DNA of 64,000 nt from Candidatus Kerfeldbacteria bacterium (GCA_043799405.1 JAZDNT010000002.1:107320-171319), one strand, 5' to 3'. Shown: positions 981 to 21,186, counted from the first letter of the stretch. Notes: generated by a model from the letters alone, not told the origin. Translations and numbers: made by a program.

Positions 981-3080
981 TTAGGAGAAACGGGCGACCC
1001 TCGCGGCAAGTAAGGCTGCCGTTGCCCGTTCTGCTTCTCGGATATCCGTCAGCGCCAGTTCGATCAACTCACAGTCACGAACAAAGGACATCTGTTCGTC
1101 CACCGTCATCTCCGGAATCTCGATACCGAGAAAATCCTCGATTGACAAACGATTTCGGCTCGTACTGGTAGTGCCCGTCGATAACCGCTCGGCCGTCGCC
1201 CAAGTGGCCGGTGATTTCAGAAAGTACTTAATGTACGGCCCATATGCGGGCGCTCCATCCTTCAGACGAAACAGAGGAAACTCATTGCTCACGTAACAAC
1301 CGTCTAGTTCCGCAGGTACCACGCCAAACGACCCCTTCCAAGCGAAAAGGCGATTATAGATTATGTCCTCGGGCTGCACCTTGAAGACGTACTTCGCCTT
1401 AATCTCAGCGCCCAGAAGCTCCTCACGCAGGAACGGCCCCTCCCCGTACCACTTCACACCCAGAAGCCGGTAGCGCTCTTTCCGTTGAACGGCGAAGCGT
1501 CGTTCCTCTCGGGCAATCCAGTCACCCAAAGGCACTGCCCTCTTGAATGTCTTTTGGCTGCCAAACGCCACGGCGCTGAGGTGCGATGACGCTGTCGTGA
1601 GCCTCCCCACGGCAGTGTTGAGCATCTCGTGGGTCTTGTCGGCAGTCTTCGATGTCACCGCCGGCGCGCGGCTAGCAAGATACTTCCCTATCCGCAAGTC
1701 GACTTTGCCCTCTTCAGCGTCGTCGACTTCGACCACAACCGATTGCGCCGACTTCCCGCGTCCGCCAAACGTTGAAAGGACAGCGGGGATGTCGTTTGCC
1801 TCAATCGGGACGCGTCGGTCGTCTAAGCTGTACCCATCCGCCTGCAGATCAAAGAACCACACCTTCCGCGTCGGCGCACCCTTCTGGAACACGAGAATGC
1901 TCGTCTTCGCACGGGCATACGGGAGAAACACACCGGCGGGGAGCGAGATCACCGCCTCAAGCGCGCACTCGCTCAACAGGGATGCTCTTAGCCGTTGGTT
2001 CGCGCGCTGATTTCCGGTAATTACACCATCAGGAACTATGATGCCGGCTCTTCCCTCATCGCTGAGATGGTCGACGATCCACTTGACGAACAAGAGTTCC
2101 GTGTCTCGGGTCGGGAGGTCGATGTCGGCTAGGACGCTCTCCTTCTGGAGACTGCCTGCGAAGGGTGGATTAGCCAGGATGACGTCGTAGAGTTGTCCCG
2201 GGTACTGCCCCCCGTGGGTGGTGGTCAGTGGGTTGTGGTGCTCGATCCGGGCCCGCTCGAGCTGGTGGAGGTAGAGGTTGAGGACGGCAATCTTCACCAT
2301 GTTGGCGTCGTTGTCGAAGCCGGTGAAAGCGTGCTGCTCGAGGAACTCCCACTGCTTCGGCTTAAGCAGGCTCCCATCAACGGTGCCGCGCTTGAGGTCG
2401 GCCGGCTTCGTGTGCTTACGCAAGATGTGGGTGTAGGCCGCGATCAGGAAGCCAGCCGTGCCACAGGCCGGGTCACAGATCCGCTGACCTGGCTGCGGGT
2501 CAACGAGAGTGACGATCAGGTTGATGATGTGCCGCGGGGTTCGGAACTGGCCATTCGTGCCGGACTGAGAGAGCTTGCTGAGCAGGTACTCGTACATGTC
2601 CCCCTTGAGATCGTGGCCTTCGTGGGGGGCAAGGTCCATCTCCGCGATCCCCTGGACGACGGCCCGAAGCGTGGGGCGGTCGTAGATCTTGAGCGTGGCG
2701 TTGCGGAACAGTTCCTGACCGGTCCGCGTCAGGCTTGGCAGCTCGTGGAGTCTTTCGATCGCTCCCCGGAGTGCATCAAAGAGCTCGTTGCCGGTGAGGG
2801 GAACGAAGCTGCCCCAGGCGTACTGCGCCCACGCACCCGAGAAAACACGCTTGTAGCCTTTCTCGATGACGGCCAACTGCTCATCTCGCTCTGAAAGGAG
2901 TCGCAGGAAGACGAGATACGACAGCTGCTCGATGGCGTCCATCGGGTTGTTGACGCCACCGGCGTAGAGGACGTCCATCAACTGGTCGACACTCTGCCGC
3001 AGCCCGGACGAGAAGAAGTTTGAGCCGTTGCTCTGGCTCAGCTTCGTCACGGAATCGCTCTGGGTCTTGGGGGCGCGCAT
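981..3080 (-). CDS. hsdM: Type I restriction-modification N6-adenine DNA methyltransferase fused to a single target-recognition (HsdS-like) domain
   Basis: 699 aa. HsdM-like N-terminus, SAM-binding DPACGTAGFL and catalytic NPPF (ILANPPFAGS). The C-terminal ~200 aa resemble one HsdS target-recognition domain (VSNEFPLFRL). AAGGA SD; start lies 7 nt after the hsdR stop. Confidence 0.85.
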   Translation of the reverse strand: MRAPKTQSDSVTKLSQSNGSNFFSSGLRQSVDQLMDVLYAGGVNNPMDAIEQLSYLVFLRLLSERDEQLAVIEKGYKRVFSGAWAQYAWGSFVPLTGNELFDALRGAIERLHELPSLTRTGQELFRNATLKIYDRPTLRAVVQGIAEMDLAPHEGHDLKGDMYEYLLSKLSQSGTNGQFRTPRHIINLIVTLVDPQPGQRICDPACGTAGFLIAAYTHILRKHTKPADLKRGTVDGSLLKPKQWEFLEQHAFTGFDNDANMVKIAVLNLYLHQLERARIEHHNPLTTTHGGQYPGQLYDVILANPPFAGSLQKESVLADIDLPTRDTELLFVKWIVDHLSDEGRAGIIVPDGVITGNQRANQRLRASLLSECALEAVISLPAGVFLPYARAKTSILVFQKGAPTRKVWFFDLQADGYSLDDRRVPIEANDIPAVLSTFGGRGKSAQSVVVEVDDAEEGKVDLRIGKYLASRAPAVTSKTADKTHEMLNTAVGRLTTASSHLSAVAFGSQKTFKRAVPLGDWIAREERRFAVQRKERYRLLGVKWYGEGPFLREELLGAEIKAKYVFKVQPEDIIYNRLFAWKGSFGVVPAELDGCYVSNEFPLFRLKDGAPAYGPYIKYFLKSPATWATAERLSTGTTSTSRNRLSIEDFLGIEIPEMTVDEQMSFVRDCELIELALTDIREAERATAALLAARVARFS

Positions 3081-3087
3081 GATGTCC

Positions 3088-5499
3088 TTAGGATGCTGCC
3101 TTTAGGGCTTCGCGTGATCGTTGCACGAGGGCAGACTGCCGCAGGGCTTCGAAGACCAACTCGCGGTCCTGGAGGGCCGCCAGCGCGGCTATTCCGCCAA
3201 GCGTGCGGAACTGGCTCCGCGCGAACAGACGACTGTACTGCCCACCAAGAAAGTCTTCCATCGCCTCTTGATCTTCGCTCACAAGCTCCGCCACGGCGTT
3301 GAGCCACTTCTGATCGCCATAGCGAAGGTTGAATCGCGCGGCGATCGAGTCCACAGTATCCGCGACGATTGCGTCCTTCGTCGGAAGCGGGCGTTTACCT
3401 AGAGCGCTGTAGACGAAGGCGGGCGTTGAGGCCGGCACGCCGTAGGACACCACCAGCTTGCCCGCGGCATAGAACATCTCCGGGTGGTGGAAGAAGCGCT
3501 CCTGGAGAATCGTCTCGATGGCATCATCGTCTTCGGCATCGACAGCATCCTTCAAGTCGGTGTTCGCTGCGGTGAACGCCTTGACGTCCCGTTCGAACGA
3601 GCCCCGGAAGGTCATCACGTCCACCTTCTCGCCATTCGGCCCGACGATACGGACTTCTTGGCTCACGATGCGGTCGGTGCCTTCCCACACCGGGATCTCG
3701 CGCTGTCGAGTGTCGTCGGGCCCGGGAGGCGTAATCCCTGCCTCGGCGCCCCCAGGAGCGCCTCGTGTACCTCCCTTGTCGTCCGCCTCCTCGGGTTGCC
3801 GCTTCGGTTGGGGAAGGGCGAGGGCCGCCGTGTAGTCGTACTTCTCCTCGAAGTACTCGGCGACTGCGCAGAAATCAAGGAGGAAGAACGTCTTCTTCTC
3901 GTACTCCGTGTTCTTGACGACGAACGTGAACCGGCGCGTTCCGCGTCCTTTGATCTGGATGTATTCCGTCGGGGAGAACACGGGGCGCATGAGGACAACG
4001 TTGAGCAGGTCGCGGCAGTTATAACCCGTCGAGAGCATGTCCACGGAGACTGCCACCCGCTCCTTGCGCTTACCGTCACGGAACTCCTTGGCCAGCGACG
4101 ACGCCTCAGGGATCCTCGAGGTGATCGTCAGCGCGATGCCTGGTTGGATCTCGTTCAGCAACTTCGTCAGAGTCGTGGCGTGTGTCTGGTTGACCGCGAA
4201 GACGAGGGACTTGCCGATCGCGCCCGTCGGGTCGCGCTGCGCCTCCTGGAGAAACGCCTCGCACATGATCCGGTTCCGCTGCGGCGTGAAGATCTTGCGC
4301 TCGAGGTCCTGGATCTTGAAGTTCTCTTCCTGCTCGTTCACGACCACGCTCCAGCCGGCATCTTGGAGAGCCTGGGTCGTGATGTCCGAGCGGCAGTCGA
4401 TGATCTTCGGCAAGCAAAGGAAGGGTCCCTCTGGGTCCTTCACGGCGTCGATTATGTCGTAGCGGAACGTAGGCTCGCCGGGCTCGCACCCGAAGTAGTG
4501 GTAGGTGTCCCGGAGCTCACGAGCTTCGAGCACTTTCGGCTCTTCCGCGGCGAGCTGTTCGAGGTTGACGTTCTTCAGGTACGCCTTGGGCGTGGCGGTC
4601 AGGCCGATACGAGTGGCTTGGAAGAACTGCACCGCTTCCCGGGCGTCGCCGTAGATCGACCGATGTGCTTCGTCGTTGATCACGAGGTCGAAGTAGAAGG
4701 GCGTGAACTCCTCGCGGTATCGCCTGTCGGTCATGAGCGACTGGATCGTCGCCACCACTACCGAGGACCCGAGCAGCTCACCCGTCCGCCGGGCCGTCTT
4801 GTAGATGACCGGCTTGTACTCGCCAAGGACGATGTTGAAGTCCTCCATGGTCTGCTTTGCAAGCTCGATACGGTCCACGATGAACAAGACCCGTTCGGCG
4901 TTGCGGGTCTTGAGAAAGCGCCGAATGAGTGCAGCGCACAGAAGGGTCTTGCCGGTCCCGGTCGCCATCTCCAACAGGAACTTTCGCCGACCCGTGTCGT
5001 CAAAGCCTTTGGCGATCGCGTCCATTGCACGGATCTGGTAGCCGCGGAGGGTCAGATCGTGGCGGAGGCTCCGGAGGTAGTCCGGGTGCACGATCTCGGT
5101 CTGAAGCGGTCGCGGAGGCCGGAGATTCTTCAGACGCACCCGCTCGAGGTCGTCGCGGCTCGGCAGCCGTTCGATGCGATAGGCGTCGCGCTGGTCAGCC
5201 CGCTCGTAGTTCCAGAACCAGTGCTGGCGGCCATTGGAGAGAATGACGAAGGGCGCCTTCAAGTTCTCCGCGTAGCCGCGGGCTTGTTCCTTCGCGTCGT
5301 AGGGGTCGAGGTCTTCGCGCTTCGCCTCAAGGACGCAAAGCACGCGTCCAAGGGTATCCTTGAGCAGGTAATCCGCCCGACCGTTCGCTGTGTGATGCTC
5401 AAAGTGGACCTGCTGCGGGTCCAGCAAATCCCAGCCACCCGCCTCGAGCGCTTTGTCGATCAGAATCCGAGAGAATGCTTCAGGTTGGTGCATCGGCAT
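3088..5499 (-). CDS. hsdR: Type I restriction enzyme R subunit-like helicase-nuclease
   Basis: N-terminal PD-(D/E)xK-like motif (ADYLLKD...VLEAKRED). SF2 helicase motifs MATGTGKT, DEAH (VINDEAHRS), GLTATP, QIKGRGTR. Start at MPMHQPEAF chosen by typical HsdR N-terminus plus GAGG SD; the ORF extends to 5568. Confidence 0.8.
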   Translation of the reverse strand: MPMHQPEAFSRILIDKALEAGGWDLLDPQQVHFEHHTANGRADYLLKDTLGRVLCVLEAKREDLDPYDAKEQARGYAENLKAPFVILSNGRQHWFWNYERADQRDAYRIERLPSRDDLERVRLKNLRPPRPLQTEIVHPDYLRSLRHDLTLRGYQIRAMDAIAKGFDDTGRRKFLLEMATGTGKTLLCAALIRRFLKTRNAERVLFIVDRIELAKQTMEDFNIVLGEYKPVIYKTARRTGELLGSSVVVATIQSLMTDRRYREEFTPFYFDLVINDEAHRSIYGDAREAVQFFQATRIGLTATPKAYLKNVNLEQLAAEEPKVLEARELRDTYHYFGCEPGEPTFRYDIIDAVKDPEGPFLCLPKIIDCRSDITTQALQDAGWSVVVNEQEENFKIQDLERKIFTPQRNRIMCEAFLQEAQRDPTGAIGKSLVFAVNQTHATTLTKLLNEIQPGIALTITSRIPEASSLAKEFRDGKRKERVAVSVDMLSTGYNCRDLLNVVLMRPVFSPTEYIQIKGRGTRRFTFVVKNTEYEKKTFFLLDFCAVAEYFEEKYDYTAALALPQPKRQPEEADDKGGTRGAPGGAEAGITPPGPDDTRQREIPVWEGTDRIVSQEVRIVGPNGEKVDVMTFRGSFERDVKAFTAANTDLKDAVDAEDDDAIETILQERFFHHPEMFYAAGKLVVSYGVPASTPAFVYSALGKRPLPTKDAIVADTVDSIAARFNLRYGDQKWLNAVAELVSEDQEAMEDFLGGQYSRLFARSQFRTLGGIAALAALQDRELVFEALRQSALVQRSREALKAAS

Positions 5500-5673
5500 T
5501 GAGTAAGCCTCATGGTCCCGCAGGCTGCGACACAGGGGTGAGAACGGCACTAGTCGCTTGATAGCCAATGCGTTACGGCGTAGTGAGCATACTGAGACTG
5601 AATCTGTTCGTCAATCTCTTCGGCGTACAAGAAAGGACGGGGCCGTCGAAACGCCAACAGCCCCGTAACTACG

Positions 5674-6135
5674 TCAGTTGAGGGACAACTCCCTCCGAAA
5701 GAGCGATGCGAGTCTGAGACTCCCTTCCATCTGCAACCGCGGGCAGGCGTCCTTCTCCACCTCGGTGAAGGCGTTGAAGAGCGACCAGGCCGTGCGCGCC
5801 GCGAACTCCTCGTGCCGTGGCTCCTCCCACGCCTCGATCACCTTGGGAAGTCGCGACGCTGGGAGGACGTTCGCTTTGACCGCCTCAATCATCAGGTGGT
5901 GGGCCTGTGCTGACGGCAGCTCGCGCACCTTCATGGCCGCGATCTCTCCGTCGATCCGCGAGCGCATGGACGAGACCTGGGAGAGCATCCGGAAGATCAG
6001 GTCCGGCAGATCACGGAACACATGGACGGTGTGCTTGCGGTGCATGGTCACCTCACCCGAGAAGGCGAGGTTGTCGCACACGAAGGTTCTTGAGCCCGAG
6101 CACATCGAGACGGACAGGGAGCGATCGTAGGAGGA
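5674..6135 (-). pseudogene. DUF932-family protein, C-terminal fragment, severed from its N-terminus by the RIT insertion
   Basis: The frame reads ...SSYDRSLSVSMCSGSRTFVCDNLAFSGE..., the conserved DUF932 core, with no native start. The matching N-terminal half is at 12617..12889 on the same strand. Confidence 0.75.
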
Positions 6136-6315
6136 GCGCTTATGCCGTGCACGGCATAAGTCGTCCTATGCCGAGTCGATCCTTATGCAGAGTTGACGGG
6201 CTTCTGCCGTGGGAGCCGTGCACCCGCTGACGCCGTTGCTCCGCATAACCGTACCCTCCTCTCCCGCGCCCGCCGTCATACCGACGACAGGCAGCCCGGG
6301 GGAGGAGGTTTCTTC

Positions 6316-7563
6316 ATGCGACTGCAGGACGGTGACCGTCTCGTGCTCGAGTACGGCGGTCGAGCAGGGTGCGCCCAAGCGCATCTCGACGACTTCGCAA
6401 GCGAGCTCTGGGTGTCGGGCTTCACACCGCTCACCATCATTCAGCACACCGTGTCGGTCTGTCACTTCGGACGTTGGCTGCTCAGCCGTGGGCTCGAACT
6501 CGGCGGCGTCACTCAGGACGTATTGGACCAGTTCGCGGCCCACTTCCATCGCTGCCGATGCTCAGTCCACCATCGGCGTTCCTTCCCGCGCACTGTGGGG
6601 CATGTCAGACGGTTCGTGACCTACTTGCGCGGGAAAGGCATCGTGCCCCACCCACTCGTCGCGCCACCGCCTGCGCCACCCGAGGCGCTTCGAGGCTTTC
6701 GGGAGTGGATGCAGCAGCATCGTGGCGCGACCGCCGGCACGACGGTGCGGTTCGAGAAGCTGCTGCTGGGGATCCTGCCCCAGCTCGGCCCCGATCCCAG
6801 GATGTACGAGCCCGCTCGCCTGCGCAGCGTGATCCTGGACGAGGGTCGTCGTCGTGGCCGGCACCATGCCCGCTTCCTCGTGACCGCGTTGCGCGCCTGG
6901 CTGCGCTTCCTCACCACTGAAGGACGATGCCCAGTGCACCTCGACCAGGCGTTGCCAACGATCGTGAAGTGGCATCTGGCGAACGTGCCCCAGCATCTCG
7001 AACTCGACGAGATCGAGCGGGTGATTGCCTCTTGCGACGCGAAGACGCCCGTGGGCGTGCGCGATCGGGCGATCCTGCTGCTGCTCGCCCGCCTCGGCCT
7101 GCGTGCTTCCGACATCACCGGGATGCGACCGGGTGACATCGACTGGCAGCAGGGTTCCTTGCGCGTCCGCGGCAAAGGCCGTCGCGAGGTCTGCCTGCCG
7201 CTGCCACAGGACGCGGGCGAGGCGCTGCTCGAGTACCTGCGCCACGCGCGACCGCTGGCCGATATCGACCGGGTGTTTCTGTGCGTGCAGGCACCCTATC
7301 GGCCCTTCGCGACGTCGATGGTCGTTGCGGACGTCGTCCGCTTCGCGCTTCGCCGGGCGGGCATCACGCGTGTGCGCTCGCAAGGTGCGCACCTCCTTCG
7401 ACACTCCGCGGCCACCTCGATGCTCAGGGCAGGGGCGTCGCTCGAAGCGATCGCGGCGGTCCTGAGGCACCGTTCACCCGAGACCACCGTCCAGTACGCC
7501 AAGGTGGACCAGGCACTCCTGCTCGCGATTGCCCAGCCCTGGCCGGAGGGAGCACCATGCTGA
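6316..7563 (+). CDS. tyrosine recombinase, RIT gene 1
   Basis: GGAGGAGG SD upstream of ATG 6316. Catalytic-type motifs GLRASD, HLLRHSAAT, ...TTVQYA. N-terminal SAM-like domain. Confidence 0.85.
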   Translation: MRLQDGDRLVLEYGGRAGCAQAHLDDFASELWVSGFTPLTIIQHTVSVCHFGRWLLSRGLELGGVTQDVLDQFAAHFHRCRCSVHHRRSFPRTVGHVRRFVTYLRGKGIVPHPLVAPPPAPPEALRGFREWMQQHRGATAGTTVRFEKLLLGILPQLGPDPRMYEPARLRSVILDEGRRRGRHHARFLVTALRAWLRFLTTEGRCPVHLDQALPTIVKWHLANVPQHLELDEIERVIASCDAKTPVGVRDRAILLLLARLGLRASDITGMRPGDIDWQQGSLRVRGKGRREVCLPLPQDAGEALLEYLRHARPLADIDRVFLCVQAPYRPFATSMVVADVVRFALRRAGITRVRSQGAHLLRHSAATSMLRAGASLEAIAAVLRHRSPETTVQYAKVDQALLLAIAQPWPEGAPC

Positions 7564-8471
7564 GAGACGACATCGAACGCTACGTCGCGCTCTATCGTGC
7601 GACCGGTCTCAAGTTCAACAAGCAGGCCAACGACCTCCGCCGGTTCGCCGCGTTCGCTGCCACGCGCGACGAAGAGGTCGTCCGGATAGGCACCGCCCTC
7701 GACTGGGCCGCGCAGGCCCCGTCGCGGGCTCAGCGGGTGTGGCTGCTCGGCGTCCTCCGGCGCTTCGCGTCGACCATGAAGGCCGAAGAGCCCCAGCATG
7801 AGATCCCACCCGCGGCAGCCTTTGGGCGAGCGCGTCCACCACGGCGCAAGCCACACATCTTCACTAGCGAGGAGCTCCGCCAGTTGCTCACGGCTGCGGC
7901 CGCACTGCGCCCGGCCGGTTCGCTGCGGCCGTTGACGTACGCCACCCTGTTTGCCCTCCTGGCAGCCACGGGCTTGCGGATCGGCGAGGCCCTCGCCCTC
8001 AAGCTCGGCGATCTCACCCCGTCGGGGTTGCTGATCCGCGACGGCAAGTTCGGCAAGAGCCGCCTGGTTCCGCTCCATGAGAGCGTTCGCGACGGCCTGC
8101 GGCGCTACGTGGCCCAGCGCACGCGCCGGGAGTGCGGCCACGAGTCCTTCTTCGCGTCCTACTTCGGTACGCCGCTGAGCTATCCGACGGTCGTCTGGGT
8201 GTTCCTCCACCTCGTGCGGTCCCTCGGTCTACACCCCGGACCCGGATGTCCCGGTCCGCGGATTCACGACCTTCGCCACACCTTCGTGGTCCGCTCCCTT
8301 GAGCAGTGCGCGGCGGGACGGGCTGCGGTCGAGCGGCACATGCTGGCCCTGAGCACCTACATCGGCCACGCCCACGTCGAGGACACGTACTGGTATCTCG
8401 AGGCGACGCCGGTGCTGCTCGCCGACATCGCGACCGCGGGCGAGGCCCTGCACGTCGGAGGTACACCATGA
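7557..8471 (+). CDS. tyrosine recombinase, RIT gene 2
   Basis: ATG 7557 overlaps the upstream stop (ATGCTGA). GGAGGGAG SD. Motifs GLRIGEAL, HDLRHTF, GHAHVEDTYWYL. Confidence 0.85.
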   Translation: MLRDDIERYVALYRATGLKFNKQANDLRRFAAFAATRDEEVVRIGTALDWAAQAPSRAQRVWLLGVLRRFASTMKAEEPQHEIPPAAAFGRARPPRRKPHIFTSEELRQLLTAAAALRPAGSLRPLTYATLFALLAATGLRIGEALALKLGDLTPSGLLIRDGKFGKSRLVPLHESVRDGLRRYVAQRTRRECGHESFFASYFGTPLSYPTVVWVFLHLVRSLGLHPGPGCPGPRIHDLRHTFVVRSLEQCAAGRAAVERHMLALSTYIGHAHVEDTYWYLEATPVLLADIATAGEALHVGGTP

Positions 8472-9475
8472 CCGATCTGGCTCCGCACCTGAGCGCCTAC
8501 CTGCGCGAGCGTCTGCCGCTTGAACGCCAAGCGAGTCCGCACACCTGCGACACGTACGCCTACGCATTCCGACTGCTCGTCACCTTCGCTGCCCAGCGAC
8601 TTCACACTACGCCATCGGCCCTGGCGATCGAGCAACTCGACGCGCCGCTGATCCTCGCGTTCCTCGAACACCTAGAGACGGTGCGGCACAACCGCCCAAA
8701 GAGCCGCAACGCGCGGCTTGCGGCGATCAAGGCCTTCGCTCATTTCGTCGAGTACCGCGTGCCGTCCAGCCTCGAACAGGTCCGGCGGATCCTGGCCATC
8801 CCGTTCAAGAAGACCGACGAGCCGCTGGTGTGCTGTCTGGATCGCGCCGAAGTCCAGGCCCTGCTCGATGCGCCCGATCCGCGCACCCGCTGCGGCCTCC
8901 GCGATCGGGCCATGCTGCACCTTGCATTCGCCGCCGGACTGCGTGTCTCGGAGTTGGTCGGTTTGTCCGTGGACGATCTGGGCCTGCGGGCCGAGCCGTC
9001 GGTCCACGTCCTGGGCAAGGGTCGTCGGGAGCGCGTCCTGCCGCTGTGGAAGGAGACCGCACACGCGCTTCGTGCCTGGTATGCGGTGCGCGGCGCGGCC
9101 CTCTGCCCGGCGTTCTTCCTCAGCATGCGCAGCGTGCCGCTGACGCGCGCGGGATTCGAGTACATCCTCAAGCGTCACGTCACGGCCGCTGGCGCCAAGC
9201 AGCCGTCGTTGGCCGCTAAGCGGGTCTCCCCGCATGTGCTGCGCCACACCTGCGCCATGCACACGTTGCAAGCCACACACGACATCCGTAAGGTCGCGCT
9301 TTGGCTCGGCCATGCCAGCGTCCAGACGACTGAGATCTACCTGCGCGCAGACCCACATGAGAAGCTGGAGGCCATCGAGGCGATCGTTCCGCCTTCGTTG
9401 CGGCGCGGTCGTTTCAAGGCACCAGATCACCTCTTCGCGATGTTGCACACAAAGGCTTCTGTCCGTTCGCAGTAG
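8468..9475 (+). CDS. tyrosine recombinase, RIT gene 3 (XerC/D-like)
   Basis: ATGA overlap with gene 2. GGAGG SD. Motifs GLRVSELV, HVLRHTCA, LGHASVQTTEIYL. Confidence 0.85.
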   Translation: MTDLAPHLSAYLRERLPLERQASPHTCDTYAYAFRLLVTFAAQRLHTTPSALAIEQLDAPLILAFLEHLETVRHNRPKSRNARLAAIKAFAHFVEYRVPSSLEQVRRILAIPFKKTDEPLVCCLDRAEVQALLDAPDPRTRCGLRDRAMLHLAFAAGLRVSELVGLSVDDLGLRAEPSVHVLGKGRRERVLPLWKETAHALRAWYAVRGAALCPAFFLSMRSVPLTRAGFEYILKRHVTAAGAKQPSLAAKRVSPHVLRHTCAMHTLQATHDIRKVALWLGHASVQTTEIYLRADPHEKLEAIEAIVPPSLRRGRFKAPDHLFAMLHTKASVRSQ

Positions 9476-9492
9476 CAGAAGGGGCGCTTCAC

Positions 9493-9921
9493 ATGCTCAA
9501 GCGCCGCACTTCCGTCGCCGATCACGCTGGCATGTTCGTGCGATTCGTTTCGAGTGTTCCGGACCCAGAGAACTCGAACGAGCCGGCCGGCCTGTTGTTG
9601 GTGGCCTCCTGGATTCGTGACCGACAACAGGCGTCGGCCTCGGAGCTGGCCCAGCTTCAAGCGCTTCGCCAATGGTTCAACGACAACCTGGCCCGGCCAC
9701 GCAAGTTCAATCGATCTCGTCGGCCGCATCGTCGAGAGAAAGCAATCTCCTAGTTCAAGGATTCCGCGGTGGAACACCTTCGCCGGGCTCGAGTGATCGC
9801 TGCCATTGTGGGTGCGTGCGGGTACGTGATCCGCGAGGTGCGGACTCGAAGGCCCGGCTACGTGGTCTATGAGGACGAGTGGCAGGTGGTCGCAGAGCCG
9901 TTCGCGGAGACGGTGAGATAG
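9493..9921 (+). pseudogene. small conserved-looking ORF interrupted by an in-frame TAG
   Basis: The 86-codon ORF ends at TAG 9751-9753. The same frame continues for 55 more protein-like codons (FKDSAVEHLRRARVIAAIVGACGYVIREVRTRRPGYVVYEDEWQVVAEPFAETVR) to TAG 9919-9921. A Trp codon (TGG) is plausible at the interrupted position (AIS*FK). Confidence 0.5.
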
Positions 9922-9937
9922 GTCCAGCCTCTGAGTT

Positions 9938-10000
9938 CGCGACGTAGCGAAAGACGCACGCATCGTTATGGAAAGCGATGCGTGCGTTTGGTTCTAATGA
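9938..10000. repeat. about 60 bp repeat, copy 1, with a 12 bp perfect stem-loop
   Basis: cgaaagACGCACGCATCGttatggaaagCGATGCGTGCGTttggttcta. The second copy is at 12508-12568. Confidence 0.8.
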
Positions 10001-10122
10001 GCGGCGCCAACCCACGACCCGGTCAGCGTAACGAACGTCTGGGTGCTTTCTCCTTCCGCTGAACACGGTCGCGGCCCTCCGTCGAGCGGCGCGCAGCATG
10101 CGCGCGCGACGCCCGGCGCGAG

Positions 10123-11871
10123 TCACCGCTGGCCCCATCGGGCGCGAATCCCACCCCCGTAGATGGTTGTGACGTGCAGGCCCCGCAGGGCTCCCCATAC
10201 CCGGGCCGCATTCTCGAGGTCGGGTTGGCCCGAGTTGAGGTAGTCATACGCGAGGTCCCTGTCACCGTACCGGTCCAGCAGGTCGATCATGTCCGGGATC
10301 CACGACTCGTCACCCGCCCGGATCAGGTCGAGGCTCGCGCTCCTCGCCGCCGCGCGAGCCTCGTCCGGGACGGACGGGAACAGGGTCACGGCGGCCATCG
10401 CCTCGCCGATCCGATGCAGGTCCGCGGTGGGGTCGGCCCCTCGGCTGAAGACCTGCGCCCAGGTCAGCTCGCCGCACTTGAGTCGAGCCACCATCTTCGT
10501 GGCGGGGTCATGCGCCGCCGCAGCGACCCGCCGCAGCGAGGCGCCGTCCAGGAGTTTGCCGAGAGCAATCTTCGACACGTCTCGGTCGGTCGAGGCCGCC
10601 GCCACGCTCTCGAGGTCCGCCGGTGCACGCAGACGCCCAACCGCTGCGACGCGGACGACGTCAAACGGACCTTCCAGCGCCTGCTTGACCAGTTCCGTCG
10701 CCACCGCGTGCTGTTCGACATCCGCCGCCCGAAGTCGGATCCGCGCCTGCTCGGCCCGCGCCCGAGCAGCGGCGGCCGGTTCGCGAATCCGGGCGACCGC
10801 CGCGTCCCGCGTGGACTGGTAGAAGTCGGTCGCGGCGACCTCCTGCAGCGAGGACGGCTGGCGAAGCGCGCGCACGATCGCCAGCCTGACCTTTGCCGAG
10901 GATTCACCTCGGAGGAGCTTCAGCAGACAGCCGTCGTCTCCTATGCCTGACACGGCCGCTGCACGAACGGCCGCCCGCGGAGACGTCGCCAGACGCTTCG
11001 ACCCGCCCGGGTCCTCCAGCAGGAGCGTCGCCAGCACCCGCACCTCCGGATTCCTGTCTCCCCAGGCGAGCGCAGCCAGAAACGAGGGGTCGCCCAGCTT
11101 GAGCAGCGCGCATTCGCGAACGAACGGATCGGCCGCCTCGAGTGCGATATGGCCAAGGAGCTTCCGGTCGGTCATGCGGTGGACGGCGGACCTGCTCCAC
11201 ACTTCGCCGGGCCTACGCAGGACCTTATCGGCGAGGCTTCGTTCACGATCGAGCGCCTTCCGGGAGATCCTTCCGCCGGGCATCGCCCGGTGTTTGCCCA
11301 ACCCGAGAGCCACTGCCGAGATGTCGTCGTCGAAGGGAAGTCCTATCGGGTTTCCCTGGCGAAGACCCCATAATCGGAAGCTTGCCTCGGAAGCCACGGA
11401 CCGAGGGCTGCCTGTCCGGGCGAGCTCTTCCAGCAGGCGCTCGTCGGTGATTCCGTGGATGGCGATGTTGGCCACCTGCTCGAGAAGATCCTCGTCCAAC
11501 GTCCCCGCGCGAATGACATAGGGAATGCGATCGTCCTCGTCGTCGCACTCCACGGCGACCCTCGCCAAGAGCGGCTGGTCGACCAGTGTTCTCAGCGCCC
11601 ACCCGCGGATCCTCGGGTCATCGAATTCGATCACGACTCGCGCCAGGGACGACTGGGCGGGCGGGCTTCGGAGATCCAGTCTGTCCACTGCGGCCCGCCG
11701 CACCTCGGCGTCGGAGTCCCGCACGGCGACGCTGGCCAGAATGGCCTCGTCTCTCACCGCGCGGAGGGCCGCCTTGCGCTCCTGCGGGTCTGCGCTCTCG
11801 AGCCTGGGACTGCAACCGGCCATCACCGCGGCTAGGAGGATCCCAGCGACGAGGCTGCGGCCATGTCGCAT
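10123..11871 (-). CDS. HEAT-repeat lipoprotein (cargo of the RIT element)
   Basis: Start MRHGRSLVAGILLAAVMAGC (signal peptide plus lipobox-like MAGC) with GGGAGGGAG SD. Repeated HEAT-like units (DAEVRRAAVDRL, NPEVRVLATLLL, SAKVRLAIVRAL, FDVVRVAAVGRL). Confidence 0.7.
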   Translation of the reverse strand: MRHGRSLVAGILLAAVMAGCSPRLESADPQERKAALRAVRDEAILASVAVRDSDAEVRRAAVDRLDLRSPPAQSSLARVVIEFDDPRIRGWALRTLVDQPLLARVAVECDDEDDRIPYVIRAGTLDEDLLEQVANIAIHGITDERLLEELARTGSPRSVASEASFRLWGLRQGNPIGLPFDDDISAVALGLGKHRAMPGGRISRKALDRERSLADKVLRRPGEVWSRSAVHRMTDRKLLGHIALEAADPFVRECALLKLGDPSFLAALAWGDRNPEVRVLATLLLEDPGGSKRLATSPRAAVRAAAVSGIGDDGCLLKLLRGESSAKVRLAIVRALRQPSSLQEVAATDFYQSTRDAAVARIREPAAAARARAEQARIRLRAADVEQHAVATELVKQALEGPFDVVRVAAVGRLRAPADLESVAAASTDRDVSKIALGKLLDGASLRRVAAAAHDPATKMVARLKCGELTWAQVFSRGADPTADLHRIGEAMAAVTLFPSVPDEARAAARSASLDLIRAGDESWIPDMIDLLDRYGDRDLAYDYLNSGQPDLENAARVWGALRGLHVTTIYGGGIRARWGQR

Positions 11872-12507
11872 GTTCACTGCTCCCTCCCTTGCGAGGCCAC
11901 CCATCGCGCGATCGGACTCCTGGCTTGGCCAGACGTGTCCCCTCGAGCCCCCGTGGCCATGCATCACCTCCGACGCAAGGACCGAGAACGGCGCTTTCTC
12001 CGCATGGACTTGCTCTCGGGCTCAGGTGATTGGGCTGGCGGCAAGTGGCACTGAAGGAGCGACCCCATCCTGAGCAGGCCCCGTGCTGAGGTCAAGCGGT
12101 CAGCTAAGGCGCAAGACTGGTGGGCCGGAGGTGGCGGCCAGGCCGCCAAGTGGGGCTGCCAAGCTATGTGCCGGTGCGATGCGGGTGGGGCGGGTGCACG
12201 CGCCGCGCCAGCAACCCGACCTCCCCCGTCAGAAGAGCACGCAGCTCGGGCCCCCGCCACGAGGCCGCCCGGACATGCAACGGTGGCCCAATGTCCTACT
12301 TCTGGAAAAGTGGGACATTCCCGATTCGGCTGGGCAGGCGGGGGCCGGCCGGCGGCCGATCGGGTACCCGTCGCGCAAGAAAGACGCGGACCTGCACGGC
12401 CGCCCACAATGGAGTTGAAGTAGGTGACCGACCGGAGGTACATCTCTGCGGTCACCCCAGTCGCCTCGGGCCGGGGTCTCTGAGCGCAGCGTCCCACCTC
12501 TCCGTGC

Positions 12508-12568
12508 GCGTCGACACGAAAGACGCACGCACTGTTATGCGAAGCAGTGCGTGCGTTTCGTTCTAGAG
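12508..12568. repeat. about 60 bp repeat, copy 2, with a 12 bp perfect stem-loop
   Basis: cgaaagACGCACGCACTGttatgcgaagCAGTGCGTGCGTttcgttcta. The stem differs from copy 1 by paired compensatory changes (CATCG/CGATG versus CACTG/CAGTG). Confidence 0.8.
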
Positions 12569-12616
12569 AGCAAAGCGCGGTGGCCACTGACCGCGCATAA
12601 CCCATAGCCCAGCATA

Positions 12617-12889
12617 AGACCTCAGCCCGATGGCGAGGGCATAATCGGCGGCCGGCTTGCCGTTAACGCAGGTGAGGACCCCGAACATCTGGGCTCCATC
12701 TCGCGCGAGCGCGAAGGCCTCGGACTGGATCGTGAGGCCGAATCTCGGCACGTGGAGCTCTACCTCCTCGACGAAGCGGCCATACGGCACCGGGTGGTAG
12801 CTCTCCGTGGGTTCGGGCACGGGGATGGCGGCGAGATCGGCCTTGGTGGCCTCCCAGCCGCCGCGATGGACAACGAGCGTTCCGGACAT
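12617..12889 (-). pseudogene. DUF932-family protein, N-terminal fragment
   Basis: MSGTLVVHRGGWEATKADL...ADYALAIGLRS, then element-derived codons run on to a stop at 12563. The sequence continues logically into the fragment at 5674..6135 (GLRS | SYDRSLS...GSRTFVCDNL). Confidence 0.75.
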
Positions 12890-12919
12890 CGGTGGACTTC
12901 CTTCTTCGGGGGCGAGAAC

Positions 12920-13387
12920 TCAGAGCTGTTGCCGAGCGCGCAAGGACACGACCCCACGGCCGGCGACGATGACGTGGTCGAGGACGGAGATGCCGAGAAG
13001 CTCCCCGGCTCCGACCAAGCGTTTGGTGATCGAGAGGTCCTCATCGGAGGGCTCGGGGTCGCCCGACGGATGGTTGTGGACCAAGACCAGGGCCGCCGCA
13101 GCTTGCGTCACGGCCGGACGGAACACTTCGCGCGGATGAACGATCGAGGCGTTCAAGGACCCGATCGAGACCGTCTCCTGGCCCATGACCTCGTGCCGGG
13201 CATTGAGGAGCAGGACGAGGAAATGCTCCCGGCTCTCCTTCCGGAGCTTCGGCCCAACGAGCCGCACGACATCGTCGGGTCCGCGGATCTCGGGGAGCCT
13301 CCGGCCTCGGTAGCGGCGCCGTGTGAGTTCGCAGACGTACACGGGGAACTCCTGCAGGGGCGGGAATGAAGAGGGGCTCCGGATCAC
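12920..13387 (-). CDS. radC: RadC-like JAB/MPN domain protein
   Basis: Motif LVHNHPSGDPEPSDEDLSITKRL...LDHVIV is typical of the RadC/DUF2466 family. Confidence 0.85.
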   Translation of the reverse strand: MIRSPSSFPPLQEFPVYVCELTRRRYRGRRLPEIRGPDDVVRLVGPKLRKESREHFLVLLLNARHEVMGQETVSIGSLNASIVHPREVFRPAVTQAAAALVLVHNHPSGDPEPSDEDLSITKRLVGAGELLGISVLDHVIVAGRGVVSLRARQQL

Positions 13388-15182: not shown

Positions 15183-16583
15183 ATGAGAGACATGCTCTTT
15201 GTCAGCCATGCGAATCCTGAAGACAACGAGGCCGCGCGCTGGTTGGCCCTCCAACTCGCTCGCGAAGGCTATCCGGTCTGGTGCGACCTGACCAAACTTC
15301 TCGGGGGTGAAGACTTCTGGCGCGACGCTGAACAAGCTATCAGGGAGAGGACAGCTAAGTTCCTCTACGTTCTGACTCGCGTGTCGAACGACAAGCAGGG
15401 CGCGCTCGACGAGTTGCAGGTTGCCAAGAACGTCGCCCGCGAACACAAGTTCCACGACTTCATCATCCCGCTGCGGTACGACGATCTTCCGCCGCGTCAG
15501 GCCAACATTCGCTTGGCAAACCTCAATTCCGTCCCGTTTCACGGTGGCTGGGCTGCCGGTCTTGCTCAGCTCCTCCAGAAGCTCGCGGAAGAGGGCGTAG
15601 CGAAGGATCCCCGTTTCTCACCGACGTCAGTCGCGAAGTGGTGGCGTAGGTTCTATCGTAGGGAGCAACTACTTCGGCGGGAGCCCGAGAGACTCGTCTC
15701 GAACTGGTTTCCGGTTCTCGACCCACCGCCGTTGCAACTCCACGAGCTCCGCTCGCGCGATGCTGTCTCGGAACTGGAGCTTTCCAGAACGCTGCCATAC
15801 CCAGCCATCCAGCATGAGGAGTGCCTCGTCTCATTTGCCGACGCGCATGACTTCGCCGAGGCACTCCCAGCTGGCCTTTCGGTGGTGCGCTCGCGGCGCC
15901 TCATGCTAACCCGTGATGCTGAAGACGAGCGGCGCGAGTGGTGGACCTTCGACCAGGAGCACAACGCCCTGATCGCGCTCCTTCGCCAAGCCTGGGTGAA
16001 GCACCTGCGGGATCGGGCCATGCCGACCTACGTCTTTGCGAGCGGTGGCGAGTCGATGTACTTCACCTCGGGCCTAGCCTCGGAGGACCGGGTGTACCTT
16101 CCGTCGAAGAACGGCGGCCGTCAGCCCTACCGGCAGGTGCTCGGCTTTGCCACAACGCGAAAGGCCACGGCCGAGGCGCCAGCGAGGCTGCGGTACTGGC
16201 ACTTTGGCGTGGAAGCGCGGCCGACGCTTGATCCGCAGCTTGCCTACGCGATGCGGCCGCATGTCCTCTTCTCTGACGACGGGCAGACGATCTGGGACAA
16301 CAAAGACCTCCTGCACCGAGCGCGCCGCAACCAGTGTAAGCAGTGGTGGAACGACGTCTGGCGAGACCGCCTTCTCGGAACGGTCCTTTGGCTCGCGGAT
16401 GGCAAGGAGCATCTCGCCCTGTCTGCGGGGTCCAGTCAGACCTTGCTTCTTGCCACGCGGCCGCTCGAGTACACCTCGCCGCTGACCTACGACGATTCGG
16501 GCTTCGAGGGCCCACCGCTTGATGAGGGAGACGATGAGGACATCGAAGAAGAAGCCTCCGCGCCGGCGAGCGGGTCAGTCTAA
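15183..16583 (+). CDS. TIR-APAZ protein (SPARTA effector subunit)
   Basis: N-terminal TIR-like domain (LFVSHANPEDNEAARWLALQLAREGYPVWCD, ...GALDELQVA...). Long APAZ-type region (SNWFPV, YWHFGVEA, KQWWNDVWRDRLL). Acidic C-terminal tail (DEGDDEDIEEE). Sits directly upstream of a short pAgo. Confidence 0.85.
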   Translation: MRDMLFVSHANPEDNEAARWLALQLAREGYPVWCDLTKLLGGEDFWRDAEQAIRERTAKFLYVLTRVSNDKQGALDELQVAKNVAREHKFHDFIIPLRYDDLPPRQANIRLANLNSVPFHGGWAAGLAQLLQKLAEEGVAKDPRFSPTSVAKWWRRFYRREQLLRREPERLVSNWFPVLDPPPLQLHELRSRDAVSELELSRTLPYPAIQHEECLVSFADAHDFAEALPAGLSVVRSRRLMLTRDAEDERREWWTFDQEHNALIALLRQAWVKHLRDRAMPTYVFASGGESMYFTSGLASEDRVYLPSKNGGRQPYRQVLGFATTRKATAEAPARLRYWHFGVEARPTLDPQLAYAMRPHVLFSDDGQTIWDNKDLLHRARRNQCKQWWNDVWRDRLLGTVLWLADGKEHLALSAGSSQTLLLATRPLEYTSPLTYDDSGFEGPPLDEGDDEDIEEEASAPASGSV

Positions 16584-16638
16584 GCCAACGCTCAGGCCTC
16601 CTCACCGCCGGAGTCGACTCCAACGCGGATCGATCCTC

Positions 16639-18138
16639 GTGCTGCGGGAGCCAAGGGTCCTCTTTCACCACAGCCAAGCACTTGAGGACCCACGTGATGG
16701 CCTGACGCTCTTTGGCCCGCTCGAAGGCCCGTTCGGGCTCCGGATTGGGGTCATCGGCACGCTGTACGGCATTCGCCTATACCGCGCGTGGGCCGAGCGC
16801 ATCCGCGGGCCGCTCGCGAACGAGGTGGGGTCGTACCTCTCTGATCCACACTTTCCCGGGTTCGAGTCGGCGTTCCGCATCCCGTGGCAGCTTGAGCCTG
16901 CGCTCACGATCGAGGTTGACCCCGAAGAGCTCGATCGAGTTGTACACCACGGCGACCCTCACCAGCGCGTCTTTGCTACGGTCGCCCTATTTGCCGAGCC
17001 GATCGTCGCGGCGCTGCGGAATGAAGAGGTCAAGGTCGACGTCTGGTTCGTGGTCATCCCGGATGTCGTGCACGAGAACTGCCGCCCGCGGTCTCGCTTG
17101 CCGCTCGATGAACGCACCGAAGATGATGCACCGGCGCACATCCGCGCCAAGGAGGCGCGGGAGCTTTTCGATCAGCCCTCGCTTTTCGCGGAAGATCACG
17201 AGGCGGCCACTCCGTACTACTTCGAGGTTGACTTCCACAACCAGCTCAAGGCCCGGCTCCTCGGGAATCTGGCGCCCACCCAGATTGTTCGCGAAAGTAC
17301 GCTCGCCTTCCCACCGAAGGAGGTGCGCCTACCGCCGGGTCGCGACAAACGCAAGCTCCAAGCAGCGGTGGCCTGGAGTCTTTCAACCGCCGCCTTCTAC
17401 AAGGCCGGCGGGAAGCCCTGGAAGATCGCCGAGATCCGCAAGGGCGTGTGCTACGTCGGGCTCGTCTTCAAGCAGGACGTAACGCAGCGCGATCCTCGCA
17501 TGGCATGCTGTGCCGCGCAGATGTTTCTGGACTCCGGAGATGGGACGGTCTTCCGCGGAGCGGTTGGGCCATGGCATTCATCTGAGCGCCACGAGTTTCA
17601 CCTTAGCCACGCAGCGGCTCGCGAGCTCATCGCCGTGGCGGTGGCCTCGTACGTAGACAAGGCCGGGCATCCACCACGGGAGCTCTTCATCCACGGCAAA
17701 GCGTATTTCGAAGATGAAGAATGGGCAGGTTTCCAGGCAGGCGTCGACGCGCGAATGACCACGCTCGTCGGCGTGCGTATCCGAGACACAGCAGATCTGC
17801 GGTTGTACCGGCCTGGCACTCACCCGGTCTTGCGCGGCACAGCTCTCGTGCGTGGCCGCAACTCTGCGTACCTGTGGACTCGCGGATTCGCCCCGCTCCT
17901 GCGTACGTACGTCGGACGCGAGGTCCCGAAGCCGCTCCGGATCGATGTGCTCCGTGGCACGGCCGAACTGCGCAAGGTCCTTGCCGACATCTTGGCTCTG
18001 ACCAAGCTCAACTTCAACACCTGCATCTTTGCCGATGGCCTGCCAGTTACTTTGCGATTTGCGGATGCTGTCGGCGAGATCCTGACAGCTGGTCCCGTCG
18101 GGCAGAGCAACCCACTCGCGTTCAAGTACTACATCTGA
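16639..18138 (+). CDS. short prokaryotic Argonaute (MID-PIWI only; SPARTA sensor subunit)
   Basis: PIWI hallmarks AAFYKAGGKPWKI, CCAAQMFLDSGDGTVFRG, LTKLNFNTCIFADGLPVTLRFAD, C-terminal ...LAFKYYI. About 500 aa, so it lacks N/PAZ domains. Start is uncertain: GTG 16639 (chosen by expected length), or ATG 16522/16534, which overlap the upstream gene. Confidence 0.85.
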   Translation: MLREPRVLFHHSQALEDPRDGLTLFGPLEGPFGLRIGVIGTLYGIRLYRAWAERIRGPLANEVGSYLSDPHFPGFESAFRIPWQLEPALTIEVDPEELDRVVHHGDPHQRVFATVALFAEPIVAALRNEEVKVDVWFVVIPDVVHENCRPRSRLPLDERTEDDAPAHIRAKEARELFDQPSLFAEDHEAATPYYFEVDFHNQLKARLLGNLAPTQIVRESTLAFPPKEVRLPPGRDKRKLQAAVAWSLSTAAFYKAGGKPWKIAEIRKGVCYVGLVFKQDVTQRDPRMACCAAQMFLDSGDGTVFRGAVGPWHSSERHEFHLSHAAARELIAVAVASYVDKAGHPPRELFIHGKAYFEDEEWAGFQAGVDARMTTLVGVRIRDTADLRLYRPGTHPVLRGTALVRGRNSAYLWTRGFAPLLRTYVGREVPKPLRIDVLRGTAELRKVLADILALTKLNFNTCIFADGLPVTLRFADAVGEILTAGPVGQSNPLAFKYYI

Positions 18139-18218
18139 TGTTAGGCGCAGATTGGTAAACGCACGCAGCCTGCTGCATCGCTGTGGGACACGTACTCACG
18201 CACGAACGGGGCAGGGCC

Positions 18219-18974: not shown

Positions 18975-18994
18975 TGCACACGCAAGCCCTCGGG

Positions 18995-19230
18995 CCAGCT
19001 GCGATAGCTAGTGCGAGAGCATCAAACATGTGCAGCCAGTACTTGTCCCGCGGTCGCAGCCCCAGCGCCGCCCGTTTCGGGATCAACTCCTTCAGCTCAT
19101 CGAGACGCCTGCCTGACCAATGCCTCCGCGACATGGATCTTCGTCGCCTTCGGGTTCCCGACCACGGGGGGATCGCACTCTCCGGAGCGCGTCAAGGGGT
19201 TCTTTGCTTTGGTCTTGTCCGACGTCAGCT
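18995..19230 (-). pseudogene. 5'-truncated, frameshifted remnant of a RuvC-like gene
   Basis: Two minus-strand frames give ...GNPKATKIHVAEALVRQ... and ...IPKRAALGLRPRDKYWLHMFDALALAIAA, matching the C-terminal ~80 aa of CDS 20548..21066. A 26 nt core is identical (19025-19050 = 20594-20619). Confidence 0.7.
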
Positions 19231-19979: not shown

Positions 19980-20202
19980 TCGCCTCTCCCTCCATCCGCT
20001 ACAGACTAACAAGTCTCTAGCGCCACGGCCATCCCCAAGGCTCATGCCTGCGTCGCCATTTATCGCATTCGTCGTCCTAATCCTTTTGATTGTGGTCGGC
20101 TTGTGTTTGGACCGCTGGAAGCGCCTAGGCTCACGGCGCCCCATTGCCCTTCACTCAGGACCGTGCTTGAATAGAATGGTCCTATTACTAACGCATCACC
20201 TT

Positions 20203-20526: not shown

Positions 20527-20547
20527 TCCACAAGCACCCGCTCCGGA

Positions 20548-21066: not shown

Positions 21067-21186
21067 GGGTTGAGTCGTGAGTTGGTTTCAAATGCCCTCC
21101 CGAAGGTCTGCTCGTCGGAGGTCCCTTGCGGACCACCTCCGAGGCAGCGGCGCTCGACAAGGCGGAGGCGCCGAGAGACGGCCGGA

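Follow-up and report, generated by a model that had tools for sequence, protein, structure and literature searches.

A cargo-bearing recombinase-in-trio element dividing a DUF932 gene, probably by site-specific insertion within a genomic island

Introduction

Recombinase-in-trio (RIT) elements encode three tyrosine recombinases in the order ritA-ritB-ritC, with overlapping frames in a unit of about 3,500 bp, and prefer genomic islands (PMC2864759; PMC3414803). Their ends form an inverted repeat with an overlapping palindrome (PMC3414803, section 11), and known insertions lie in the radC gene of an integrative and conjugative element, in an IS66 gene and in the transposase gene of Tn6049 (PMC2864759; PMC3414803). 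They have a wide distribution among bacterial phyla; which targets they choose, where the crossover takes place and why three recombinases are needed are open questions (PMC3414803; PMC10214605), and their mobility, target specificity and mode of movement are listed as not tested (PMC10214605). Here we analyze a window of 64,000 nucleotides (nt), the whole stretch of DNA under study (GCA_043799405.1 JAZDNT010000002.1:107320-171319, labeled Candidatus Kerfeldbacteria bacterium), in which a RIT element divides a gene of the DUF932 family. We consider it highly probable that this is an intact element of 6,478 bp, inserted site-specifically at the Leu-Arg-Ser codons of the DUF932 gene within a tRNA-linked island.

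With the RITs described from Cupriavidus metallidurans CH34, C. necator pHG1 and Bordetella petrii (Van Houdt 2009/2012; Ricker 2013) it shares the gene order, the overlaps of 4-8 bp, the three subfamilies of recombinases, the palindrome-overlapped inverted repeats and the insertion in genes of other mobile elements. As RIT insertions in genes of integrative elements, such as radC, have already been described, the nesting itself is not new. The window element differs from those RITs in its size (6.48 kb versus about 3.5 kb), its unrelated genes, its duplicated right-end module and its DUF932 target, which is unnamed as a RIT target in the literature compared (the Ricker 2013 survey lies outside that comparison).

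A DUF932 gene divided within its most conserved motif

The minus-strand open reading frame (ORF) at 12563..12889 starts MSGTLVVHRGGWEATKADL, reaches DYALAIGLRS and then runs into unrelated codons, while the minus-strand frame stopping at 5674 reads ...HKRSSYDRSLSVSMCSGSRTFVCDNLAFSGE... and has no start codon at its beginning. An earlier note on this DNA, made from the sequence alone, took these for the halves of one DUF932 gene split by a trio element, and both halves are where it placed them. The target gene and its junctions are made up as follows.

12624..12889, minus strand: N-terminal DUF932 part, Met1 to Leu89 (translation and alignment of the joined product)
5674..6133, minus strand: C-terminal DUF932 part, from the second Ser of GLRSSYDRS to the stop at 5674-5676 (translation and gapless joined alignment)
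5666-5637: terminator-like hairpin after the C-terminal part, the gene's own (terminator scan)
6134..6139, no strand assigned: 6-nt spacer on the C side, GAGCGC on the plus strand and GCGCTC on the gene strand (last base of Leu, CGC Arg codon, TC of Ser; from sequence)
12618..12623, no strand assigned: 6-nt spacer on the N side, GACCTC on the plus strand and GAGGTC on the gene strand (last base of Leu, AGG Arg codon, TC of Ser; from sequence)

Joining the halves in silico with one 6-nt spacer kept (...AIGLRS+SYDRS...) yields a product of 243 amino acids (aa) that is colinear with its homologues, the outcome of the check which the earlier note had proposed. This product scores 30.5 bits on Pfam DUF932 (PF06067; gathering cut-off 23) and has 1,380 relatives at E <= 1e-10 in a large protein collection; the best 120 of these show 98-100% coverage, 78-88% identity and lengths of 240-244 aa, most being exactly 243 aa. 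In a 12-sequence alignment with homologues of 86-88% identity the junction is free of gaps and sits within the invariant motif R-x-S-Y-D-R-S, the sole length difference being two residues at the N terminus, and every column invariant among the homologues is retained in the window halves, neither of which shows decay. The gene order in the intact homologues is also that of the window: a 230-243-aa protein, a PD-(D/E)XK nuclease, RadC and DUF932. The gapless alignment together with the shared neighbors thus indicates that the DUF932 gene is truly split, with neither half decayed. More than 100 close DUF932 homologues are uninterrupted.

Since both target halves are kept and uninterrupted alleles are available, the crossover can be read to a 6-nt spacer. 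Two intact alleles, the empty sites L007 and L008, read CTG AGG TCG TCC TAC and TTG CGC TCG TCC TAC, respectively. On the gene strand the N side of the window reads ...ATC GGG CTG AGG TC/TTATGCTGGG... and the C side ...GGCATAA/G CGC TC/C TCC TAC GAT (slashes mark the spacer borders). Six nucleotides stand at both junctions: Leu contributes the final base of its codon, Arg its whole codon and Ser two bases. The two versions, GAGGTC and GCGCTC, differ at two of the six positions, yet each encodes Arg-Ser, and each has its counterpart in one kind of empty-site allele (Arg codon AGG in L007, CGC in L008). The element proper is 6140-12617 (6,478 bp), and the reading frame is restored by removing 6,484 bp, that is, the element with either spacer (6134-12617 or 6140-12623), which leaves a site of ...ATCGGGCTG-(AGGTC/CGCTC)-CTCCTACGAT. 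The element thus lies at the codons Leu-Arg-Ser of GLRSSYDRS, the most conserved motif of DUF932.

The boundaries first proposed, 6139 and 12618, carry the motifs reported for them (CTTATGC at 6139-6145 and GCATAAG at 12612-12618), but literal excision of 6139..12618 causes a frameshift, and the reading with a 6-nt spacer was adopted instead. CTTATGC as a 7-bp common-core crossover would need 15 extra nt within DUF932, which the gapless alignment rules out.

A complete RitA-RitB-RitC trio

Three tyrosine recombinase genes stand at the left of the element, with the overlapping stop and start codons described earlier.

6316..7563, plus strand: ritA, 415 aa, with GGAGG 8 nt upstream of the ATG, two N-terminal core-binding-like domains and a catalytic domain (Pfam Phage_integrase 8e-28; RitA of pHG1 3e-64; hhalign)
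7557..8471, plus strand: ritB, 304 aa, with a 7-nt overlap with ritA (ATGCTGA, 7557-7563; Pfam, blastp, alignment)
8468..9475, plus strand: ritC, 335 aa, with a 4-nt overlap with ritB (ATGA, 8468-8471) and the RitC-specific tail RRGRFKAPDHLFAMLH (Pfam, blastp, alignment)

All three proteins match Pfam Phage_integrase (97.7, 64.3 and 111.9 bits; cut-off 27.1). As the subfamily reference we used the pHG1 trios named rit in PMC2864759 (PHG134/135/136 and PHG129/130; locus L003). With blastp, each window protein pairs over its full length with its positional counterpart (A-A 3e-64, B-B 4e-53, C-C 2e-81), at a protein identity of only 33-44%, and matches across subfamilies are confined to the catalytic domain (best 3e-17). 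The trio is RitA, RitB and RitC in that order, as subfamily assignment had been expected to show, and its set of catalytic residues is complete: nine aligned Rit proteins share R, K, HxxR, H and Y without variation (R39, K63, R138, H139, H161 and Y170 in the numbering of the first, trimmed RitA row of the alignment). The two halves of the RitA N-terminal region, 1-118 and 119-226, match each other in hhalign (probability 87.5%, E 3.6e-6), and each matches the RitC core-binding region (E 1e-7 and 8e-6); two sequential core-binding domains are the hallmark of RitA (Smyshlyaev 2021, PMC8138268). A C-terminal tail found only in RitC, (R/K)(R/P)GR(F/Y)(K/R)xPDxL, is kept in the window, pHG1 and Microvirga; it is a candidate for the additional conserved helix expected at the C terminus of RitC. 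None of the window Rit proteins reached the XerC/XerD family cut-offs (best 120, 65 and 174 bits on the XerC NCBIfam equivalog, cut-off 335) or that of the integron integrase model (46-73 bits, cut-off 265). Membership of the window element in the RIT family is well supported, size being the only typical feature that fails.

The reference plasmid itself presents a RIT within a RIT: in pHG1 (L003, 13345-19608) the RIT PHG134-136 lies inside the ritC position of the PHG129/130 RIT, which also has a truncated third gene, and an inverted partial RIT copy follows the nested pair.

Architecture of the element ends

Inverted arrays of GCATAA-type boxes occupy 6166-6252 and 12535-12617. Read outward, the ritA end consists of the box CTCGGCATAG, the 6 nt GACGAC, a 20-nt palindrome (TTATGCCGTG/CACGGCATAA), the 6 nt GCGCTC and DUF932, and the right end of the box CCCAGCATAA, the 6 nt GACCTC and DUF932. 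The parts of the two ends are:

6140..6159, no strand assigned: 20-nt palindrome TTATGCCGTGCACGGCATAA, with arms like the terminal box; 22 nt are perfect when 6139 and 6160 are included (sequence, folding, L010)
6160..6175, no strand assigned: GTCGTC spacer of the proposed unused core site (6160-6165) and ritA-end terminal box CTATGCCGAG (6166-6175; sequence comparison)
6182..6252, no strand assigned: left subterminal repeats, with a second box CTTATGCAGAG (6182-6192) and an inner GCATAA (6243-6248), the inverse of the right-end TTATGCGAAGCA
12491..12617, no strand assigned: functional right end, with a hairpin (12523-12556) around TTATGCGAAG, a first box GCATAAC (12595-12601) and the terminal box CCCAGCATAA (12608-12617); also in L090

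The ends had been described as carrying inverted motifs. These are present, but the CTTATGC at 6139 does not mirror the right terminal box; it forms the outer arm of the extra palindrome. Compared with shuffled sequence, the 22-bp palindrome (6139-6160) is more stable by about 5.7 standard deviations, and the related locus L010 retains it through a compensatory change of C..G to G..C. The TTATGC hexamer shows no overall enrichment across the window (17 found versus 16.4 expected); seven of the 17, however, fall within 6140-6248 and 12535-12617, stretches of about 110 bp at the two element ends, and the DUF932 flank holds an eighth, 22 nt beyond the element. The GCATAA at 12639-12644, in that flank, was considered as a target arm and rejected, as it is missing from the L007 and L090 alleles.

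A GC-rich hairpin of 12-13 bp surrounds the inner right-end TTATG at 9954-9987 and 12523-12556 in the window and at 5369-5400 in L090. It is confined to the lineage inserted in DUF932, and the stems of the two window copies differ by two compensatory changes; it may be a terminator or a recombination signal. A search of IMG/VR with a 15-mer of the hairpin gave eight chance matches, with no RIT among them.

Sister insertions at the same codon

The comparison set comprises 80 loci from a metagenome scan with RitC, to which L090 was added via a protein search; these loci are short metagenome contigs. RitC has roughly 8,000 relatives in all. A scan of a genome collection with RitB found only three distant trios (40-41% identity), which are uninformative on ends, and a scan of IMG/VR with RitA gave no match. 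Many of the contigs L012-L089 stop 100-250 nt outside the trio, as assembly breaks at repeated elements would give, and RIT ends and their flanks are hence under-represented in assemblies.

Two of these loci hold sister copies of the window element, the kind of further copy that the earlier note had suggested seeking. In L010, RitA, RitB and RitC are 94, 95 and 93% identical to those of the window, and the C-terminal part of DUF932 from residue 90 directly adjoins the ritA end. At the DNA level the element is 93.0% identical and free of gaps, the DUF932 flank only 78.9%; the junction is at the same codon, with the Ser codons AGC AGC versus TCC TCC in the window. In L090 the trio is 86-90% identical to that of the window (84.9% for the element DNA, 75.6% for the flank), and RadC followed by the N-terminal part of DUF932 (residues 1-91) runs into the ritA end, i.e. 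in the opposite orientation, with a junction at the same codon position (GGC GT/G CGG AA/CTATG). Three insertions at one DUF932 codon, in diverged alleles and in both orientations, make the lineage appear site-specific, and the stronger conservation of the element relative to its flanks favors site-specific insertion over one inherited event.

Cargo between ritC and the right end

The element is, as the earlier note held, about twice the usual size and carries cargo: 18 relatives with both ends alignable measure 3.39-3.51 kb, with ritC 20-130 nt from the right end, whereas the window element, at 6.48 kb, has ritC and its right end about 3.1 kb apart, with non-recombinase DNA filling the interval inside the element boundaries.

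9493..9921, plus strand: cargo 1, a small ORF (about 142 codons) broken by an in-frame TAG at 9751-9753, with coding-like codon-position GC; no Pfam or PHROG match
9922..10050, no strand assigned: degenerate internal right-end module with a hairpin at 9954-9987 (sequence comparison)
10123..11871, minus strand: cargo 2, a HEAT-repeat lipoprotein annotated at 582 aa, with the lipobox VMAGC; the ORF is extendable to 11967 (Pfam, phmmer)
11872..12490, no strand assigned: about 620 nt lacking both a coding-like frame and an Rfam match

A word-indexed search returned only the self-match for the HEAT lipoprotein, and its candidacy as an orphan was overturned by an exhaustive phmmer search, which found 1,506 relatives, the best of them 41% identical over residues 228-581 (the C-terminal 350 or so). 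These relatives carry no annotation beyond HEAT in Pfam and there is no match in PDB; the protein belongs to an uncharacterized family. An Rfam search over 5400-13200 gave no match, and no rit remnants were found in the cargo. In L090 the same slot holds other genes, encoding a DtxR-like repressor, an ABM-domain protein and a 157-aa ORF without Pfam match, followed by the same hairpin and boxes in an element of about 4.96 kb with only one right end. This different cargo points to a variable cargo slot in the lineage.

The internal module repeats the right end imperfectly: its first box is decayed and its terminal box is missing, and the 81 nt at 9922-10002 share 78% identity with 12491-12571. 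Elsewhere in the window neither end was found a second time. We conjecture that the cargo was captured as the decayed proximal right end (9922-10050) gave way to the distal one (12491-12617). The same modules also lend themselves to a reading as two adjacent elements, in which a RIT of about 3.9 kb ends near 10050 and is followed by a 2.57-kb HEAT segment with its own right end (10051-12617), either what is left of another RIT-type insertion or a non-autonomous derivative that came in on its own. The direct orientation of the two modules and their low identity, suggestive of different sources, fit such an arrangement, as does a cargo that occurs in none of 86 related loci. We nonetheless hold it to be unlikely, given the state of the internal module's boxes, the lack of left-end boxes or a palindrome at 10050-10122 and of rit remnants in the segment, and the single right end beyond the cargo of L090; moreover, the N-terminal part of DUF932 joins the distal end directly, so that the target-bounded unit is now the whole 6.48 kb. 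An integron-like cassette reading of the two hairpin modules was rejected, its basis being just two copies, one of them decayed.

A palindrome on a fixed side of the target

A set of compact RITs from metagenomes and the Microvirga plasmid pMVF16-3 (L002 and L012-L089), with RitC 64-72% identical to that of the window, has the same inner TTATGC motif, two GCATAA boxes, 6-nt spacer and one-sided palindrome. They differ from the window element in their length of 3.39-3.51 kb, in having neither cargo nor a hairpin at the inner motif, and in their targets, IS66 tnpB or an IS91-associated integrase gene. Across the window and the fetched loci, the layout of box, 6-nt spacer, 20-nt palindrome, 6-nt spacer and flank occurs in 45 instances; in 27, one spacer is the exact reverse complement of the other.

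The side on which the palindrome stands was counted from regular-expression hits and by reading translated flanks, the genes being unannotated except in L002. In IS66 tnpB it is on the DGL side in all 12 cases, at the ritA end in eight and at the ritC end in four; for the integrase gene preceding an IS91-type transposase, all 17 cases have it on the GKGRKDR side, at one element end or the other. Imperfect palindromes read the same way along the element strand at one end as at the other, without exception among 15 instances in two families. As judged from these flanks, the position of the palindrome is a fixed side of the target and not a fixed end of the element.

The insertions in IS66 tnpB (L002, L012, L015, L017, L021, L030, L035, L036, L041, L069, L070 and L072) share one place, between the codons of D-(M/F)-R-K and G-x-D-G-L. 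A multicopy soil RIT family (L043-L057 and L081) lies in the integrase gene at GKG(R/Q)KDR/DVMLSPKLL. In the IMG/VR contigs L092-L094, RIT ends with the same palindrome split a small membrane-protein gene at ...MGA(I/V)FT/.

A model of integration and its alternatives

These patterns may be drawn together in a model, every step of which, including circle formation and strand exchange, is inferred from sequence patterns. Excision would give a circle whose two terminal boxes are opposed, with a 6-nt spacer between them; the predicted circle junction is CCCAGCATAA-N6-TTATGCCGTGCACGGCATAA-GTCGTC-CTATGCCGAG. Such a circle would hold two core sites back to back, each of the form box, spacer, box, with the 20-nt palindrome supplying their shared inner arms. 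Because the spacers of the two core sites would be inverted, an asymmetric target could be entered in either orientation, the target recombining with the core site whose spacer orientation matches, by tyrosine-recombinase strand exchange across its matching 6 nt. The unused core site would be left intact at one end beside the palindrome, at 6140-6175 in the window, where the palindrome at 6139-6160 would mark it. The spacers would be carried from site to site as coupling sequences, with mismatches tolerated, and travelling spacers of this kind would explain GAGGTC versus GCGCTC at the window junctions.

Inner spacers that are not reverse complements of the outer ones still resemble the corresponding target codons of a different allele. 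That of L092, once reverse-complemented, reads ACGGTG, the target in the L094 allele, and the unused spacer CCGGAG of L010 resembles GCGGAA, the used spacer of L090.

Extended to the family, the model would make RITs orientation-independent site-specific integrators, whose circle has two back-to-back core sites sharing a palindrome and inverted 6-nt spacers overwritten by the last target; each sublineage would home to a single run of conserved codons in some other mobile element (IS66 tnpB, IS91-linked integrase, radC or DUF932), and the DUF932 lineage, with its cargo slot between ritC and the right end, would be a gene shuttle between genomic islands. We advance this wider picture tentatively, as a serious possibility that may well fail in one or another of its parts.

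Several points weigh against our interpretation. No RIT has ever been shown experimentally to move (PMC10214605, Table 1), and the window is a metagenome-assembled contig. Just three insertions in DUF932 were found, and both junctions are visible only in the window. The right end of L090 adjoins an unrelated gene, with no palindrome, and the model can explain this junction only via later recombination between copies. The target arms next to the spacer are unlike the GCATAA boxes, leaving target recognition unexplained by the model, and the window's unused spacer, GTCGTC, agrees at four of six positions with the used spacer in reverse complement and does not encode the invariant Arg. The route proposed for the capture of the cargo is a conjecture.

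As an alternative to transposition, the trio might no longer serve a transposon at all, being instead a resident inversion or rearrangement module that inverts the DNA lying between the intact core site and the site at the left junction, or else inert. The used and unused sites are inverted, as in an invertible segment, and both orientations occur relative to one type of target. Inversion alone could not reach new DUF932 alleles, however, and the same element family sits at different alleles and target copies. In addition, L047 has palindromes at both ends and L048 at neither, the outcome that would be expected of recombination between two separate, oppositely inserted copies, of which these two look like the products. 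We regard such a module as rather improbable.

The three cases in DUF932 could instead descend from a single ancient insertion inherited vertically, and would then be uninformative on site specificity and on recent mobility. Each of them is in this one gene family with RadC as its neighbor, and three cases are few; the element is nonetheless better conserved than its flank in both sister copies (93.0 versus 78.9% in L010, 84.9 versus 75.6% in L090), L090 is in the opposite orientation, uninterrupted close homologues number over 100 and the window halves are free of decay, all of which makes common descent very improbable. Site-specific insertion stays our preferred reading, and a chimeric join that placed a repeated element between the gene halves, conceivable in a contig of a metagenome-assembled genome (MAG) with a doubtful taxonomic label when RIT ends often break assemblies, is scarcely credible against two junctions at the same codon, a perfectly restored frame of 243 codons and the same junctions in independent contigs from other samples.

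The genomic island

The GC (guanine plus cytosine) content is 60-69% from base 1 to about 25,800 and about 55% beyond 26 kb. The high-GC island and the serine recombinase at its edge, beside two tRNA genes, place the DUF932 gene in an integrative island, which makes the earlier view of a mobile element nested in a mobile element a reasonable one. Genes and features of the island and its edge include:

981-3080: type I restriction-modification methylase
3088-5568: type I restriction-modification R subunit
15183-16583: 466-aa TIR-domain protein
24194-25798: large serine recombinase gene at the island edge, adjoining two tRNA genes
25667-25742: tRNA-Ala(cgc)
25787-25858: tRNA-Arg(cct)
26513-29698: gene for a 1,061-aa secreted protein with fn3, PhoD-like and LysM domains

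The restriction-modification pair and the TIR-domain protein are of defence type. The island also holds the set of PD-(D/E)XK, RadC and DUF932 genes, and its left boundary lies outside the window; several ORFs in 16519-21822 have no family match. Beyond it are housekeeping genes, IF-2, RNase Y and a Mur ligase among them. Just outside the island there is a GC trough of 41.6% at 26-28 kb, at the start of the 26513-29698 gene. The DUF932 protein of the island has at least one close relative in an Acidobacteria MAG (RBG_16_64_8); either the island is foreign to its host or the Candidatus Kerfeldbacteria bin label of the 302,101-bp source contig is doubtful.

Discussion

Other systems share parts of this organization. 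Like Tn554, the SE elements and the GInts, the window element combines several tyrosine recombinases with site-specific insertion. Its recombinases are of other families (the GmtY NCBIfam model scores about 16 bits on RitA and RitC, against a cut-off of 340), and whereas those systems need a fourth small protein (TnpC, Srap or GinD), no such homologue was recognized in the window element; the small ORF after ritC, considered for this role, has an internal stop and no family match. Tn554 and the SE elements carry 6 bp of donor flank to the new site (PMC10214605), and the non-identical spacers of the window resemble this transfer. They likewise find a mechanistic analogy in Tn916 and CTnDOT. The integrases of these two tolerate heterology at the crossover and move flank bases between sites; they differ in relying on a single integrase with an arm-binding domain plus an excisionase, with neither a trio nor back-to-back core sites.

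Set against the literature compared (Ricker 2013 being outside it), what appears to be new is a lineage homing to DUF932, with a duplicated right-end module and a cargo that doubles the size of the element and is different in a sister copy; from the comparison of loci, the fixed-side palindrome rule and the putative travelling spacers appear new as well. To a specialist the locus itself is unsurprising, yet it offers a good handle on RIT movement: GLR/SS of DUF932 with two sister copies amounts to a defined target, clonable for a transposition assay, and the comparison of 45 instances yields a specific, testable model in which two core sites are inverted and spacers travel. Annotators who meet a split DUF932, IS66 tnpB or integrase gene beside a trio should take it for a RIT insertion and not for pseudogene decay. 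Finally, the usual picture of a bare 3.5-kb trio omits cargo, whereas this locus presents a RIT able to carry unrelated genes.

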